A stretch of 64,000 bases of DNA from Cyanobacteria bacterium P01_F01_bin.150 (GCA_039189765.1 JBCCYL010000004.1:17348-81347), one strand, 5' to 3'. Shown: positions 6,331 to 10,846, counted from the first letter of the stretch. Program-made: numbers and translations. The notes: generated by a model not told the origin, from the letters alone.

Positions 6331-6408
6331 GGGGATGTAGCTCAGCCGGTTTAGAGCACCTGTCTGTCGAACAGGACGTCGCGGGTTCGAATCCCGTCAT
6401 CCTCGCCA
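6331..6408 (+). tRNA. tRNA-Asp (anticodon GTC), CCA encoded
   Basis: acceptor ggggatg/catcctc, G73, loop ctGTCga, T-loop ttcgaat. Confidence 0.75.
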
Positions 6409-6469
6409 TTTATGTCCCATAGAAACGTCTGAGATGATGGCATTGCCGTTATCTCAGGCGAATACTTAT

Positions 6470-6543
6470 AGTCTCGTGGACGAATAGATAAGTCGCTTTG
6501 GTTCTCAGCCAGAGAGAAGCGGGTGCAACTCCCGTCGGGACTT
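6470..6543 (+). tRNA. Degenerate tRNA-like gene (anticodon-loop CTC, Glu-type; non-canonical T-loop tgcaact)
   Basis: acceptor agtctcg/cgggact pairs, D-arm resembles the Gln(CUG) copies; T-loop lacks TTC. Confidence 0.3.
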
Positions 6544-6546
6544 TAA

Positions 6547-6621
6547 GTCCAGGTAGCCAAGTGGAAAGGCGTTGGTCTGCAAAACTAAAAATCATGGGTT
6601 CGATTCCCATCCTGGACTCCA
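6547..6621 (+). tRNA. tRNA-Cys (GCA), CCA encoded
   Basis: acceptor gtccagg/cctggac, U73, loop ctGCAaa. Confidence 0.7.
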
Positions 6622-6683
6622 AATTTTCAACTCTCAGATCCCAGGGTTCTCAAAGAACCCTGGGATCTCAAACCACAATCTGA

Positions 6684-6758
6684 CGGAGTGTAGCTCAACG
6701 GTAGAGCACTAGGCTCATAACCTAGCACGTGCGGGTTCGACTCCCGCCACTCCCACCA
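6684..6758 (+). tRNA. tRNA-Met (CAT) (elongator/initiator/Ile2 type undetermined), CCA encoded
   Basis: tagctcaacggtagagc D-arm, loop ctCATaa, T-arm gcgggttcgactcccgc. Confidence 0.7.
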
Positions 6759-6805
6759 ACTGTGATGACATACGAAGTCTGTACTCATATGTTTGCAGTT
6801 TGTTT

Positions 6806-6879
6806 GGGCGGGTAGCTCAACTGGCTAGAGCAGCGGTCTCCAAAACCGCAGGTTGCAGGTTCGACCCCTGTCCCGCTCG
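6806..6879 (+). tRNA. tRNA-Trp (CCA)
   Basis: acceptor gggcggg/cccgctc (G-U), G73, loop ctCCAaa. Confidence 0.7.
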
Positions 6880-6954
6880 TGAGACACAGCAAGTCTCTCC
6901 CTTAAGACAGTGGTGGATGTCCTCCACATCCACCGCTTTACTTCTCAAAACCTT

Positions 6955-7032
6955 GGTGCCGTAGGCAAATTTGGTAAAGCCACATGACTTTCAATCATGT
7001 GTTTGCGGGTTCGAGTCCCGTCGGCACTTCCA
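6955..7032 (+). tRNA. tRNA-Glu (TTC), CCA encoded
   Basis: acceptor ggtgccg/cggcact, anticodon arm catga-ctTTCaa-tcatg. Confidence 0.6.
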
Positions 7033-7076
7033 GTTTTTCACCCCCTCTAACTCCCCCTTGGCAAGGGGGAGGACCT

Positions 7077-7159
7077 GGGTCGGCCCGCCTATTGGAGTGA
7101 GGCAACGGTCTGTAAAGCCGCCGCGTAACGCGTTGCAGGTTCAACCCCTGCCCGACCCA
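7077..7159 (+). tRNA. tRNA-Tyr (GTA), class II with long variable arm
   Basis: acceptor gggtcgg/ccgaccc, A73, loop ctGTAaa, variable stem cgcg-taa-cgcg. Confidence 0.65.
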
Positions 7160-7249
7160 TAGCCCCGCGATCGCCACAGGATCCCCGGCTTTTCTCTCTC
7201 AATCCGGGGATCTACCGCTCAAGCGATATTTCGATTATTTCAACGACCT

Positions 7250-7340
7250 GGAGAGGTCGCCATTGGCAAAGCAAGCTGCCTGCTAAGCAGTCGTGGGTCT
7301 AAACGGTCCACTGTGGGTTCGACTCCCACCCTCTCCGCCA
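7250..7340 (+). tRNA. tRNA-Ser (GCT), class II, CCA encoded
   Basis: acceptor ggagagg/cctctcc, G73, loop ctGCTaa, long variable arm. Confidence 0.7.
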
Positions 7341-7385
7341 GAATCTTAGTTTTTTGGGGCGATCGCATAAGCAGTCCAATAGTCT

Positions 7386-7462
7386 GAGGGCGTGGTGTAA
7401 ATGGATAACACGCCAGGTTGCGAACCTGGAGAGTAGGGGTTCAAGTCCCTTCGTCCTCGCCA
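7386..7462 (+). tRNA. tRNA with anticodon GCG (Arg, unusual G34), CCA encoded
   Basis: acceptor gagggcg/cgtcctc, arm ccagg-ttGCGaa-cctgg. Confidence 0.5.
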
Positions 7463-7491
7463 AATACATAACATTTCTGTAAGTCATTCAT

Positions 7492-7576
7492 GGAGGTTGT
7501 CCGGCATGGACGAGGAAAGCGTCTTGAAAACGCCTGCGGCTACAAACCGTCAAGGGTTCGATTCCCTTAGCCTCCG
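7492..7576 (+). tRNA. tRNA-Ser (TGA), class II
   Basis: acceptor ggaggtt/agcctcc, G73, loop ctTGAaa, long variable arm. Confidence 0.6.
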
Positions 7577-7625
7577 CTTTTCCCATGTAGGGTGGGCATC
7601 GCCCACCACCACCATATCCAAATCT

Positions 7626-7697
7626 GGGGACGTAGCTGAGATGGATTAGCGTCAGGTTGAAGCCCTGAAGAGGTAGGTTCAATACCTACCGTTCCCA
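7626..7697 (+). tRNA. tRNA-Phe (GAA)
   Basis: acceptor ggggacg/cgttccc, A73, arm tcagg-ttGAAgc-cctga. Confidence 0.7.
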
Positions 7698-7759
7698 TCC
7701 TCTGTATTGGTTAAGCATTATTGCTTAAGAACAGAGGGTTAACCAATACGGAGCATTAA

Positions 7760-7835
7760 TGCCTCATAGCTCAACTGGCAGAGCGAGCGGCTGTTAACCG
7801 CGAGGTTGTAGGTTCGAGTCCTACTGGGGCAGCCA
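7760..7835 (+). tRNA. tRNA-Asn (GTT), CCA encoded
   Basis: acceptor tgcctca/tggggca, G73, loop ctGTTaa. Confidence 0.7.
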
Positions 7836-9357: not shown

Positions 9358-9361
9358 AATT

Positions 9362-9436
9362 GCCGATGTGGCTCAACGGTAGAGCATCTGATTTGTAATC
9401 AGACGGTTGCAGGTTCGAATCCTGTCATCGGCTCCA
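9362..9436 (+). tRNA. tRNA-Thr (TGT), CCA encoded
   Basis: acceptor gccgatg/catcggc, arm tctga-ttTGTaa-tcaga. Confidence 0.7.
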
Positions 9437-9438
9437 GC

Positions 9439-9510
9439 GCGGATGTGGTGTAAGTGGAAACATCAAAGACTGCCAAGCTTTAGTTGCGAGTTCGACCCTC
9501 GTCATCCGCT
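9439..9510 (+). tRNA. tRNA-Gly (GCC)
   Basis: acceptor gcggatg/catccgc, U73, loop ctGCCaa. Confidence 0.6.
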
Positions 9511-9606
9511 TTGTTAGCTTTAGAAGCTAGTATCCTAGCCAAGACGCCAGATGCAATGCAAATTCCGCCTTCTGCCTTTTGCTTTCTACCCTCTGCCTTG
9601 CTTCAA

Positions 9607-9707
9607 AGTCCCGTAGCTCAACGGTGGAGCACTTGTCTTACAAACAAGGGGTTGTGGGTATTCCCTATCGGGAACGCTTGCGCGAACAAATCCCACCGGG
9701 ACCACCA
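9607..9707 (+). tRNA. tRNA-Val (TAC) carrying a 27-nt insertion in the T-loop (approx 9660..9686), CCA encoded
   Basis: acceptor agtcccg/cgggacc (A1-C72 mismatch), arm cttgt-ctTACaa-acaag, T-stem gtggg/cccac separated by 33 nt instead of 7. Confidence 0.5.
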
Positions 9708-9710
9708 TTT

Positions 9711-9787
9711 GGGAGTGTAGCTCAATGGACTAGAGCACCGATCTTCTAAATCGGCTGTTGTAGGTTCGAATCCTACCACTCCTGCCA
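9711..9787 (+). tRNA. tRNA-Arg (TCT), CCA encoded
   Basis: acceptor gggagtg/cactcct, arm ccgat-ctTCTaa-atcgg, canonical T-arm. Confidence 0.7.
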
Positions 9788-9813
9788 TCTCGCACAAAAC
9801 ATATAGCCAACAT

Positions 9814-9886
9814 GGGCCTGTAGCTTAACTGGGAAAGCGTCTGTCTTGCAAACAGAAAGATGTCGGTTCGATTCCGACCAGTGTCC
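9814..9886 (+). tRNA. Degenerate Ala-like tRNA (TGC) with two acceptor-stem mismatches, probable pseudogene
   Basis: arm tctgt-ctTGCaa-acaga and T-arm gtcggttcgattccgac fine, but acceptor gggcctg vs cagtgtc does not pair fully. Confidence 0.35.
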
Positions 9887-9946
9887 ACTTGCCGGAGGGG
9901 CGATCGCACCCCACCCAATCGCCCTCTGGCTCTTCATCATACTTGT

Positions 9947-10045
9947 GGGAGTGTCGCCTAATGGATTGGGCACCAGTCTTCGAAACTGGTCTGTGTGGGT
10001 AACTCCTAACGGAGACGCTTGCGCGAACGATTCCTACCACTCCTG
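9947..10045 (+). tRNA. tRNA with anticodon TCG (Arg) carrying the same 27-nt T-loop insertion (approx 10001..10027); same acceptor as Arg(TCT)
   Basis: acceptor gggagtg/cactcct, arm ccagt-ctTCGaa-actgg, T-stem gtggg/cctac separated by 33 nt. Confidence 0.5.
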
Positions 10046-10053
10046 TCAAATTC

Positions 10054-10125
10054 GGGACCATAGCTCAACTGGAAGAGCACCTGCCTTGCAAGCGGGAGGT
10101 AGGGGTTCGATTCCCCTTGGCTCCA
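10054..10125 (+). tRNA. tRNA-Ala (TGC) with G3-U70
   Basis: acceptor gggacca/tggctcc (G3-U70, one A-C mismatch), A73, arm cctgc-ctTGCaa-gcggg. Confidence 0.65.
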
Positions 10126-10127
10126 CT

Positions 10128-10203
10128 GTGACGGAAACCGAAGTGTTCGAGGTGCTGGTCTGTGAAACCAGTTTTAGCGAGTTAGAGTCTCGTCCGTCAC
10201 CCC
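10128..10203 (+). tRNA. Degenerate His-like tRNA (GTG) with G-1/C73 but no canonical D- or T-loop; probable pseudogene
   Basis: 8-bp acceptor g-tgacgga/tccgtca-c, arm ctggt-ctGTGaa-accag, D-region cgaa-gtg-ttcg lacks GG, T-loop ttagagt. Confidence 0.35.
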
Positions 10204-10223
10204 AAGTTCTCTCACTCCATATA

Positions 10224-10338
10224 TGGAAGGTGCCGCCAATGGTTGGCAATCGGTCTCGAAATCCGAGGGATAGCATCGCTATCGGGGTTTCTCCTATCAG
10301 AGACGCTTACGCGAACAATTCCTCCACCTTCCGCTCCA
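10224..10338 (+). tRNA. tRNA-Ser (CGA), class II, carrying the 27-nt T-loop insertion (approx 10289..10315)
   Basis: acceptor (t)ggaaggt/accttcc, G73, loop ctCGAaa, long variable arm, then insertion ttctcctatcagagacgcttacgcgaa. Confidence 0.45.
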
Positions 10339-10345
10339 AAAACAT

Positions 10346-10423
10346 GTTGGCCGAATCCAAAGTGGACGCGGAACTGGTTTGTGACACCAGTTGTAGCGGG
10401 TTCAAGTCCCGTCGGTCAACCCA
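10346..10423 (+). tRNA. tRNA-His (GTG) with encoded G-1 and C73, CCA encoded
   Basis: g-ttggccg/cggtcaa-c, D-loop aaagtggacgc, arm ctggt-ttGTGac-accag, T-arm gcgggttcaagtcccgt. Confidence 0.7.
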
Positions 10424-10427
10424 TTTC

Positions 10428-10542
10428 TGGAAGGTGCCGCTAATGGTTGGCAATCGGTTTGGAACACCGAGGGATGGCATGCTGCTATCGAGGTTTCTCC
10501 TATCGGAGACGCTGACGCGAACGATTCCTCCTCCTTCCGCCA
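10428..10542 (+). tRNA. tRNA-Ser (GGA), class II, carrying the 27-nt T-loop insertion (approx 10495..10521), CCA encoded
   Basis: perfect anticodon stem tcggt-ttGGAac-accga, G73, insertion ttctcctatcggagacgctgacgcgaa; paralog of 10224..10338. Confidence 0.5.
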
Positions 10543-10846
10543 GTATTAATTGCATTACCAACATTCTTCCAAAACTATGAATACCTCAGCCCCAGGCACG
10601 AAGCAAGACAATGCCACTCGACTAAACCAACCGATGTTTAGCAAGCAAGCTGCCCGAAATTATAGAGTGCTATTGCCAGCACTACCTCGATATTTTGGTC
10701 GTCTTCTTCAAAATGATGATCCCATTAACCCAGTTTCTGAAAAAGACTATTACATGGTTCGTCGATTCATGTAATACCCGTACATTGGCTAGCTTTGTTT
10801 AGCGATCGCCCCATCATAAATAAAGCTAGTCATTCATCCACCAGAG

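Follow-up and report, generated by a model that had tools for sequence, protein, structure and literature searches.

A dense tRNA array from a cyanobacterium as a very probable ortholog of the L-array/trn operon, with a candidate structured module in the T-loops of four units

Why does a cyanobacterial genome carry nearly forty tRNA and tRNA-like genes one behind the other on a single strand, and what are those members that do not resemble ordinary tRNAs? The question is raised by a stretch of 64,000 nt from Cyanobacteria bacterium P01_F01_bin.150 (GCA_039189765.1, JBCCYL010000004.1:17348-81347), called here the window, in which a first-pass annotation made from the sequence had described about 37 such units within 4.2 kb. 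Comparison with other genomes indicates that the block is very probably a cyanobacterial L-array/trn operon, whose ortholog in Anabaena/Nostoc PCC 7120 is carried by plasmid delta, and that it constitutes an inducible supernumerary set of tRNAs. With its 38 units, it is a large additional member of a known family, and this part of the work is confirmatory.

The first evidence for this assignment comes from gene order. Megablast against plasmids matched the delta plasmid of PCC 7120 and a plasmid of Kovacikia minuta, both of which carry colinear arrays. The longest common subsequence of anticodons comprises 18 of 24 units for PCC 7120, 23 of 33 for Kovacikia and 21 of 24 for array L070 (arrays are cited by locus code where needed, L001 being PCC 7120 and L046 Cyanothece sp. 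SIO2G6), as compared with shuffled orders that average 7.5-8.5 and never exceed 14 (mean 7.5 and maximum 12 in 2000 shuffles for the PCC 7120 comparison). L-arrays contain up to 43 genes, spread horizontally and have a conserved HNH gene upstream (PMC8421152). The gene order that the Anabaena, Nostoc, Acaryochloris and Oscillatoria arrays have in common, which points to one origin, and the upstream HNH gene of the all8564 type are both found in the window, together with a single orientation and short gaps compatible with a single operon, and with one strong promoter upstream. The remark of the first-pass annotation that similar arrays had been reported in cyanobacteria was thus well founded, the window array being a clear ortholog of the L-array/trn operon.

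How many units the block contains was addressed with ARAGORN at default and relaxed settings (90% threshold) and with the Rfam tRNA model, used both at its gathering threshold and in E-value mode (E up to 10). At default settings, the 31 tRNA genes that ARAGORN called all occupy the + strand from 6331 to 10423, and the remaining ~60 kb of the window yielded no call; the shortage of cloverleaves that would have spoken against the first-pass annotation did not appear. At the gathering threshold, Rfam confirmed 27 of these 31 genes and added units at 9607-9704 and 10128-10201, and the E-value mode yielded a further one at 9947-10045 (37.4 bits; the gathering score of the family is 29) as well as weak matches at 7087-7151 and 10225-10332. 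A Tyr-GTA unit (7076-7160) was recovered by ARAGORN at the 90% threshold. Four units are missed by ARAGORN because ~27 extra bases sit in their T-loops, and a covariance model of this expanded T arm (R1) matches them at 9653-9698, 9994-10039, 10282-10327 and 10488-10533 with 66-70 bits, the rest of the window reaching at most 19 bits. All methods combined give 37 units in 6331-10542 (~8.8 per kb), every one on the + strand, with gaps of 1-113 nt, an encoded CCA in 23 of the 37 (one unit boundary was corrected by sequence reading) and 32 distinct anticodons for 19 amino acids; the number of units, the short spacers and the many CCA ends claimed beforehand are borne out. Even the 31 genes called by default make up a tRNA array unit as defined by Tran et al. 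2016 (20 or more tRNA genes, with 2 or more per kb; PMC4758250). The internal segmental duplications reported earlier are likewise real: a 106-nt duplication (7904-8009 and 8245-8350) is 92% identical, four Leu-type paralogs are 82-94% identical to one another, and a pair of Ser units belongs to a further duplication (10212-10334 and 10416-10540). The units are as follows, with the supporting method in brackets.

6331-6408, +: tRNA-Asp GTC, CCA encoded (ARAGORN, Rfam)
6470-6543, +: tRNA-Glu CTC, orthologs in 7 arrays (ARAGORN; Rfam low, 37 bits)
6547-6621, +: tRNA-Cys GCA, CCA encoded (ARAGORN, Rfam)
6684-6758, +: tRNA-Met CAT (1), CCA encoded, C1/C72 mismatch, initiator-like as read from the sequence (ARAGORN, Rfam)
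6805-6880, +: tRNA-Trp CCA (ARAGORN, Rfam)
6955-7032, +: tRNA-Glu TTC, CCA encoded (ARAGORN, Rfam)
7076-7160, +: tRNA-Tyr GTA, class II, weak D arm, orthologs in 12 arrays (relaxed ARAGORN only; Rfam partial, 21.8 bits; fold)
7250-7340, +: tRNA-Ser GCT, CCA encoded (ARAGORN, Rfam)
7386-7462, +: tRNA-Arg GCG, CCA encoded (ARAGORN, Rfam)
7492-7577, +: tRNA-Ser TGA (ARAGORN; Rfam E-value mode)
7625-7700, +: tRNA-Phe GAA (ARAGORN, Rfam)
7760-7835, +: tRNA-Asn GTT, CCA encoded (ARAGORN, Rfam)
7928-8003, +: tRNA-Gln CTG (1), CCA encoded, inside the 106-nt duplication (ARAGORN, Rfam)
8017-8089, +: tRNA-Gln TTG (1) (ARAGORN, Rfam)
8138-8215, +: Leu-anticodon TAG tRNA, class I shape, 75 nt plus CCA, A73 discriminator, homologs in 20 loci (ARAGORN, Rfam)
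8269-8344, +: tRNA-Gln CTG (2), duplicate, CCA encoded (ARAGORN, Rfam)
8404-8477, +: tRNA-Gln TTG (2) (ARAGORN, Rfam)
8534-8611, +: Leu-anticodon CAG tRNA, class I shape, CCA encoded (ARAGORN, Rfam)
8621-8698, +: Leu-anticodon TAA tRNA, class I shape, CCA encoded (ARAGORN, Rfam)
8704-8779, +: tRNA-Pro TGG (ARAGORN, Rfam)
8783-8860, +: Leu-anticodon CAA tRNA, class I shape, CCA encoded (ARAGORN, Rfam)
8865-8940, +: Leu-anticodon GAG tRNA, class I shape, CCA encoded (ARAGORN, Rfam)
8943-9018, +: tRNA-Lys TTT, CCA encoded (ARAGORN, Rfam)
9129-9200, +: tRNA-Lys CTT (ARAGORN, Rfam)
9202-9280, +: tRNA-Met CAT (2), CCA encoded, atypical D and T loops, orthologs in 8 arrays (ARAGORN; Rfam 35 bits)
9284-9357, +: tRNA-Gly TCC, CCA encoded (ARAGORN, Rfam)
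9362-9436, +: tRNA-Thr TGT, CCA encoded (ARAGORN, Rfam)
9439-9510, +: tRNA-Gly GCC (ARAGORN, Rfam)
9607-9707, +: tRNA-Val TAC with T-loop insert 9660-9686, CCA encoded (Rfam 49 bits; R1 67 bits; ARAGORN Val-TAC after insert deletion)
9711-9787, +: tRNA-Arg TCT, CCA encoded (ARAGORN, Rfam)
9814-9886, +: tRNA-Ala TGC (1) (ARAGORN, Rfam)
9947-10045, +: tRNA-Arg TCG with T-loop insert 10001-10027, without CCA, G1/U72 pair (Rfam 37.4 bits; R1 69.6 bits; ARAGORN after deletion)
10054-10126, +: tRNA-Ala TGC (2) (ARAGORN, Rfam)
10128-10204, +: His-anticodon GTG tRNA-like unit, degenerate D and T loops, CCA encoded, orthologs in 10 arrays (Rfam 44.9 bits; fold)
10225-10332, +: Ser-anticodon CGA unit with T-loop insert 10289-10315, without CCA (R1 66.3 bits; weak Rfam; not callable after deletion)
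10346-10423, +: tRNA-His GTG, encoded G-1 as read from the sequence, CCA encoded (ARAGORN; Rfam E-value mode)
10429-10542, +: tRNA-Ser GGA with T-loop insert 10495-10521, CCA encoded (R1 68.7 bits; ARAGORN Ser-GGA after deletion)
10838-10909, +: 38th unit, GAU (Ile) non-canonical cloverleaf, discriminator A, without CCA (conservation, RNAalifold)

The region upstream of the array provides a second line of evidence. Its relevant features are these:

4514-5077, +: HNH endonuclease (Pfam HNH/HNH_5), ortholog of Anabaena All8564
5148-5546, +: Alr0857-family protein (NCBIfam NF045647, 126.6 bits against a cut-off of 75; PF28246)
5821-5873, +: array promoter and putative TrcR operator, with -35 TTGACA at 5833-5838, -10 TATTAT at 5857-5862 and four TGTADTAY boxes at 5821, 5843, 5855 and 5866
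6027-6050, +: conserved leader motif GAACCTTGAAAACTGAATATTTTCC, shared by blastn with L104, L070 and L079

The HNH protein is 75% identical to All8564 (L001 2513-3049) over 161 aa (E=4e-94), homologs of it are found 5' of the arrays at 10 other loci, and in 6 other arrays an Alr0857-family gene comes next. At 5833-5862, TTGACA-18-TATTAT is the best promoter match across 3.4-11.4 kb, agreeing with the consensus at 11 of 12 positions. In the Anabaena trn operon, the ribbon-helix-helix repressor TrcR binds TGTAGTAT over the -10, and alr0856 (HNH) and alr0857 are TrcR-regulated as well (PMC10272220). Four of the 11 TGTADTAY matches of the whole window cluster within 53 bp (5821-5873). Over 5810-5870, identity to 8 other arrays amounts to 77-85%; they include the experimentally mapped trn promoter of PCC 7120. 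The arrays have in common a fixed order of elements, namely an A-tract, TTGTAGTA, CCCTTGACA, TGTAATAC, TGTAGTAT (TGTATTAT in the window) and a further TGTA box. Tested at the sequence level, the window promoter carries a putative TrcR operator of the trn operon kind, and a motif like GAACCTTGAAAACTGAATATTTTCC directly precedes the first tRNA of PCC 7120. In its anatomy, synteny, promoter and operator conservation and gene neighbourhood, the window array matches the Anabaena locus.

What the array does can be approached through that locus. The Anabaena trn operon is read into one transcript, which undergoes rapid processing, and it stays silent in normal growth; under ribosome-targeting antibiotics it is induced 100- to 1000-fold, of its 26 tRNAs 23 carry their amino acids in vivo and are present on polysomes, and the HNH gene all8564, conserved upstream, is co-regulated with it (PMC8421152). 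Orthology to this operon makes a normally repressed, stress-induced supplementary tRNA set the likely function of the window array, and TrcR repression, induction, processing and charging would by the same token be expected in the source organism. The sigma-70 promoter at 5833-5862, overlapped by tandem TGTARTAY repeats, would drive one long transcript of the 38 units, which probably continues into a NADAR gene and the open reading frame (ORF) that follows it; no + strand terminator was found between the array and these two genes, and inside the array there is no strong one, only a weak hairpin at 6909-6937. A TrcR-type repressor would keep the operon silent until translation stress or ribosome poisoning induces it, as in Anabaena, and the precursor would then be cut rapidly into single tRNAs, most of them aminoacylated and reaching polysomes as they do there. 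In this way the array could supply supernumerary inducible tRNAs for all 20 amino acids, and the co-regulated upstream HNH endonuclease is thought to aid its horizontal spread.

Several observations weigh against a simple transfer of the Anabaena scheme, and other origins of the array deserve consideration. The promoter lies ~470 nt 5' of the first tRNA, compared with ~90 nt in PCC 7120, and the ~270 nt between leader motif and first tRNA (6060-6330) have no counterpart in PCC 7120; because of this extra stretch, an internal start or an attenuator may reside there. The trcR gene was not identified within the 64-kb window. Some members look degenerate, namely the Ser-CGA unit with insert, the first His-like unit and the Arg-TCG unit with insert (without CCA, G1/U72), so that part of the array may be decaying. 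A different view is that the array mainly counters tRNA-cleaving toxins or anti-phage nucleases, or is what remains of a phage tRNA island. In its organisation it indeed comes close to the tRNA clusters of phages that are accompanied by free-standing homing endonucleases (T4 SegB; PMC8421152; PMC13096335), the HNH protein has matches among phage HNH families and the NADAR protein in both a phage family and a candidate defence family, and VapC nucleases are induced and operon tRNAs cleaved during the stress response of Anabaena. However, the window array has neither phage structural nor integrase genes at its flanks, a scan of viral contigs for the T-loop insert returned a single match with no tRNAs nearby, and the TrcR/ribosome-antibiotic logic of the regulon is established for the ortholog; this view, which overlaps the trn operon explanation rather than excluding it, is quite improbable as the main account. 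That the array arose in assembly, from tRNA repeats that were collapsed or chimeric, which the first-pass annotation had itself named as a possible undoing, can practically be dismissed. An independent short-read Logan assembly (SRR22824305) does break inside the array at 6536, which marks the region as hard to assemble, but the Logan contig is identical over 3537-6536, the units are diverse (32 anticodons), paralogs are only 82-94% identical and hence differ by 6-18%, unit order agrees with more than five independent genomes, and the promoter and the 3' Ile-like element are placed as in other arrays. The trn operon explanation is accordingly retained for the locus. A chromosomal location is plausible, since the window also encodes ppk1, radA and speA; other L-arrays too sit on Mb-sized contigs.

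Some further observations concern the leader and possible regulators. The stretch 6060-6330 contains HIP1 (GCGATCGC) sites, a hairpin (6257-6273) and, just before tRNA-Asp, an inverted pair of TrcR-like boxes (GTAGTAGT at ~6288 and ATACTACG at ~6308), and may represent a second operator or an attenuator, or else be junk that was inserted. In four other arrays, a small protein with a ribbon-helix-helix-like N-terminus and the motif VTSIRLERELKEKLKEL is encoded beside the HNH gene (L018 2527-2862, L076 6432-6938, L079 5169-5507, L101 4182-4517); judged by its sequence, this family may be a TrcR-like regulator, and no homolog of it was seen in the flank of the window array. An extra exact TGTAGTAT box at 28353-28360, near the start of a 658-aa ORF (28285-30261, without NCBIfam match), could mark a further member of the TrcR regulon or be a chance match, as the motif is not more frequent in the window than expected.

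Are the odd members of the array peculiar to it? The unusual units pointed out by the first-pass annotation do exist, but they have counterparts in other L-arrays. Bacterial tRNA-Leu is a class II tRNA with a long variable arm. The five Leu-anticodon units of the window (TAG, CAG, TAA, CAA and GAG) do not have this form: with 73-75 nt and a variable loop of 5 nt they are class I in shape, and all five carry A73; the Leu-TAA unit is uninterrupted. Short Leu genes occur likewise in PCC 7120, Kovacikia and other arrays, and long arms are kept in the Ser and Tyr units. Orthologs elsewhere were also found for the His-like unit at 10128, Met-2 at 9202, Glu-CTC at 6470 and Tyr at 7076, which argues that the atypical units are maintained. 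The Arg unit at 7386-7462 has the anticodon GCG, and other arrays show ACG at that position; ACG is read as ICG after deamination and a GCG anticodon is rare in bacteria. The Ser-CGA unit with insert is probably decaying, as it combines an anticodon-stem mismatch, a C/A mismatch in the insert hairpin and the lack of CCA. Long inverted repeats form some of the inter-tRNA spacers (9023-9116, 7697-7756, 6909-6937 and 6630-6670), the largest, 9023-9116, being made of AAAATCY/GATTTTR heptamer-like repeats similar to those in L070 and L076 spacers; a role as processing signals is conceivable, as is an origin as small inserted repeats.

The array does not end with the last Ser unit. Blastn of spacers and flanks revealed a ~75-nt element (10837-10912) that is 82-95% identical to 3'-end elements of 9 other arrays, including PCC 7120 (L001 5507-5582). 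RNAalifold on nine of these sequences gives a cloverleaf with compensatory changes at five pairs; its acceptor stem has 7-8 bp, the D stem 3 bp and the anticodon and T stems 5 bp each, the anticodon loop reads CUGAUAA and the T-loop, GGCAGUA, is non-canonical. Both ARAGORN and Rfam (E up to 10) overlook the unit. It lies 295 nt further downstream, outside the span described by the first-pass annotation, whose statement that 19 amino acids are covered and Ile-GAT is lacking is therefore true inside that span and does not extend to the array as a whole, since this 38th unit, with GAU, brings the coverage to all 20 amino acids. An operonic tRNA-Ile(GAU) with aberrant migration in acid gels has been reported in Anabaena (PMC8421152). 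Because ARAGORN calls no GAT gene in the PCC 7120 array, the terminal GAU element is probably that tRNA. No description of the class I-shaped Leu genes or of the terminal GAU cloverleaf was found in the literature on these arrays, an earlier mention being possible. The last Ser unit and the Ile-like one are separated by a stretch with a 74-codon ORF (10550-10774), whose stop overlaps a TGTAATAC box (10770-10777).

The most unexpected members are the four units that hold a 27-nt insert in place of U55, with the shared motif GGT-W-hairpin-CGCTNNCGCGAAC-RAWT-CC. After in silico deletion of 25-26 nt, ARAGORN recognises Val-TAC, Arg-TCG and Ser-GGA in three of them, and the fourth (Ser-CGA) is an 85-91% identical paralog of the Ser-GGA unit. 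The insert is a module made of a covarying hairpin and the near-invariant CGCUNNCGCGAAC. A pattern scan for RACGCTNNCGCGAACRAWTCC in one genome per species (185,579 species) gave 100 stretches, 18 of them cyanobacterial, and in 15 of these 18 the match (16 copies) lies in a T-loop within an L-array in sense orientation. The other three consist of two chance matches in protein-coding sequence (L005, L027) and one solitary remnant (L058); the non-cyanobacterial matches (Caballeronia, Streptomyces, Planctomycetes and others) were discarded as chance, having a protein-coding-like context, no upstream hairpin and at most 25 bits. The L058 copy (1451-1489, from a Chamaesiphon metagenome-assembled genome, MAG) is weak, at 25 bits, in an 8-kb stretch without tRNA genes, and may be what is left of a decayed array. 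A covariance model built from seven copies (copy cut-off E<5e-4) finds 47 copies in 19 arrays and at least 22 anticodon types, 4 in the window and 43 in 18 other genomes, many of which do not fit the search pattern. The model finds none in the arrays of PCC 7120, Kovacikia, Nostoc CENA543 and Calothrix NIES-4101, and its absence from PCC 7120 may explain why the module went unnoticed in the model strain. Culturable strains that do carry it include Alkalinema pantanalense CENA528, Plectonema radiosum NIES-515, Calothrix sp. CCY 0018 and Nostoc sp. TCL26-01. No description of T-loop inserts in these arrays was found in the literature, where an earlier mention is possible.

Across its copies the module is 23-27 nt long, with a stem of 3-6 bp in hairpin 1, whose loops are mostly C(UUCG)G (12 of 47), UAAC or UAUC. 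Three of the five pairs of this hairpin show compensatory double changes (30 cells), single-sided changes are absent, and paired cells amount to 96.5%, as against 82.5% in shuffles and 38-68% in slid controls; these values come from an alignment fitted to the model, which favours pairing, and the covariation is also visible by eye. A second hairpin (CGC-UNNC-GCG) shows no compensatory change on the alignment and remains a proposal. The predicted minimum-energy fold of the Ser-GGA unit with its insert is a cloverleaf with two extra hairpins. An alternative fold, in which the conserved segment pairs with the 5' T-stem strand in two window units, was dismissed, because T-stems differ between tRNAs and such pairing could not be conserved. 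In L096 (2710-2773) and L042 (5485-5550), an extra insertion of ~20 nt lies inside the second (CGC/GCG) hairpin, which suggests that the module has itself received an insertion or undergone an internal duplication.

The module occupies position 55, and T54, C56, R57, A58 and the G53-C61 pair are kept around it. In silico excision restores ARAGORN tRNAs in 32 of the 47 copies, covering 23 anticodons and 15 amino acids, and leaves the other 15 not callable. The residue after T54 is A in about 30 of the 47, where excision would give A55 or a 6-nt loop; in a 'TT' subclass, to which both window Ser units belong, removal leaves a canonical loop such as TTCGATT. Every copy is sense-oriented in a T-loop and none is intergenic. 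The window Val-TAC unit and the uninterrupted Val-TAC of L046 are 1 nt apart in the tRNA body, T55 being replaced by A plus 26 nt, and an Arg-TCG gene carries the module in Alkalinema pantanalense and lacks it in Alkalinema sp. CACIAM 70d. This presence or absence in near-identical tRNAs makes the module look mobile. Between the window and L046, the interrupted Arg-TCG units differ by a compensatory C-G to U-A change in the anticodon stem, which argues that the host tRNA stayed under selection at the RNA level.

Judged by these sequence features, the module has the behaviour of a mobile insertion that is structured as RNA and has one target site, and its retention in the RNA as an 'elbow expansion' seems most likely, because excision cannot regenerate U55 in the ~30 copies that start with A. 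Its spread may proceed by gene conversion between conserved T-loop flanks, perhaps triggered by the HNH endonuclease of the array cutting uninterrupted T-loop DNA. The joint reading, which is put forward tentatively and falls a little short of even likelihood, is that of a previously undescribed mobile RNA module of L-arrays, with a hairpin whose cap is mostly of the UUCG or UAAC type, followed by a near-invariant CGC-UNNC-GCG-AAC, that yields either elbow-decorated tRNAs or the first protein-spliced bacterial tRNA introns.

The main rival, a serious though less probable one, is that the module is a selfish DNA mini-insertion targeting the GGTTCRA T-loop, its host units being pseudogenes tolerated through redundancy. 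A mobile element would predict just the observed presence and absence in near-identical orthologs, and pseudogenisation agrees with the removal of the near-universal U55, with the A after T54 that prevents precise excision from restoring a canonical T-loop in most copies, with the additional defects of the window Ser-CGA and Arg-TCG units and with the 15 copies that stay uncallable. Against this view speak the compensatory changes and the excess of paired cells in hairpin 1, loops dominated by RNA-stable tetraloops, the retention of T54, C56, R57, A58 and the G53-C61 pair around the insertion, the 32 of 47 hosts intact after excision, the compensatory pair in the Arg-TCG anticodon stem, and the sense orientation of all copies with none between genes. 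Protein-dependent splicing is the most exciting possibility and the least supported, and is judged improbable: the module would be an intervening sequence cut out and the ends ligated, for instance by RtcB, to give a tRNA of normal size. RtcB belongs to the TrcR regulon in Anabaena (PMC10272220). Removal of 23-27 nt does restore most host tRNAs, with a canonical loop in the 'TT' subclass, and the near-invariant CGCUNNCGCGAAC could serve as a protein recognition site; on the other hand, the predicted folds contain neither a bulge-helix-bulge nor another known splice-site structure, some 30 copies would end with A55 or a 6-nt loop, the insert has no match among the intron and ribozyme families of Rfam, and we know of no splicing endonuclease in bacteria. 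Other candidates were rejected. Among Rfam families only tRNA was found for the insert (E up to 10), and group I introns as in cyanobacterial tRNA-Leu UAA and tRNA-fMet, ribozyme insertions of at least 200 nt in anticodon loops, are unlike these inserts of 23-27 nt in T-loops. A bulge-helix-bulge intron (two 3-nt bulges around a 4-bp exon-intron helix) does not agree with folds showing two self-contained hairpins, as judged by inspection only, with no dedicated search. A miniature inverted-repeat transposable element or a repeat of the repetitive extragenic palindromic type does not fit copies confined to array T-loops in sense orientation, and duplication of flanking bases was not seen in two ortholog comparisons. 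As to a phage origin, the single viral-contig match is taken as chance because no tRNA lies nearby.

Beyond the array and its promoter, the following neighbours were recorded.

3585-3613, +: promoter-like site TGGACA-17-TAGTAT upstream of the ORF3885/HNH/Alr0857-family cluster, with a TGTAGTAT box (3606-3613) covering the -10
3885-4355, +: ORF3885, 156 aa, also called as a gene in the Logan contig
4382-4413, +: G+C-rich 13-bp hairpin followed by a T-tract, just 5' of the HNH gene
10983-11435, +: NADAR-domain protein (Pfam NADAR E=2.7e-41; TIGR02464 156.7 bits)
11407-12204, +: basic ORF (orf11407), 251-265 aa, a recurrent array neighbour

The HNH and NADAR genes flank the array as the first-pass annotation had proposed. 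A NADAR homolog, 74% identical, is embedded within the L076 array, and homologs of orf11407 (46-47% identical) directly follow the arrays of L070 and L087. Neither ORF3885 nor orf11407 has a match in Pfam, NCBIfam, PADLOC or PHROGs. A hairpin comparable to that at 4382-4413 precedes all8564 in PCC 7120. Downstream of three other arrays, a conserved protein of ~240 aa is encoded (L002 10954-11682, L036 3619-4341, L048 3631-4353), which by eye looks like the tRNA nucleotidyltransferase/poly(A) polymerase family. An RTX-repeat (calcium-binding) protein (34960-36459) and a Ser/Thr kinase with weak similarity to defence-system kinases (61063-63351) are unrelated neighbours.

The regulation and stress role of such arrays have already been worked out in Anabaena, and the T-loop module is apparently new, its priority being uncertain. 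Standard tRNA finders miss both the conserved terminal Ile-like cloverleaf and this structured single-site insert, which recurs over many cyanobacteria and tRNA identities and is polymorphic between near-identical genes. To our knowledge, the only other sequences described as interrupting tRNA genes of bacteria are introns of groups I and II. Should the module stay in the RNA, it would offer natural elbow-expanded tRNAs in which to study reading by the ribosome, EF-Tu, RNase P and tRNA-targeting toxins, whose recognition a decorated elbow would change during translational stress. If it is removed, RtcB, whose role in bacteria is unsettled, would gain a defined substrate.

The closest known system is the trn operon of PCC 7120 (Santamaria-Gomez et al. 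2021; for TrcR, Commun Biol 2023), with which the window array has in common the gene order, the upstream HNH gene (75% identity), tandem TGTARTAY boxes in the promoter, Leu tRNAs of class I shape, many encoded CCA ends and the terminal GAU cloverleaf. They differ in size (38 units against 26) and location (apparently chromosomal in the window, plasmid delta in PCC 7120). The window has in addition Cys, Met, Trp, Lys-CTT, Gly-GCC, Arg-TCG and Ser-GGA units, duplicates of Gln, Leu and Ala units, a leader of 470 nt, four T-loop modules where PCC 7120 has none, and a NADAR gene and an ORF without family match downstream. Other L-arrays (Kovacikia minuta pA, Cyanothece sp. SIO2G6, Alkalinema, Plectonema, Microcoleus, Rivularia and others) are colinear, with HNH and Alr0857-family genes upstream; 18 of them carry T-loop modules, and the tRNA genes that host these vary between arrays. 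The closest array is that of the Cyanothece sp. SIO2G6 MAG, with single units 91-95% identical. A canonical Ile-GAT follows Leu-GAG in Kovacikia, L036, L042, L048, L054 and L070 and is missing in the window.

Comparison can also be extended beyond the family. SegB of phage T4 is an endonuclease of the GIY-YIG type. Clusters of the T4 type combine dense tRNAs with this small free-standing enzyme, which may promote their spread (PMC8421152); the window array differs from them in its HNH rather than GIY-YIG enzyme, its cellular setting, the host repressor expected by analogy with Anabaena, and the absence of phage genes nearby. The non-canonical tRNA introns of archaea and red algae also interrupt the T-loops of many identities by a short insertion, and are removed, those at T-loop positions included, by means of bulge-helix-bulge motifs (PMC13578239). 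The module differs from them in its bacterial host, in folds without bulge-helix-bulge, in the fixed site 55 and the conserved sequence, and in that excision would not restore U55 in most copies. In Staphylococcus, non-proteinogenic tRNA-Gly with an altered T-arm and D-loop is diverted from the ribosome to cell-wall synthesis. Unlike the module hosts, those tRNAs show point changes, belong to one identity and have a demonstrated function; like them, the module hosts are probably supernumerary, would by analogy keep their aminoacylation identity, and are changed in the T-loop and elbow, which could alter their use by EF-Tu and the ribosome.

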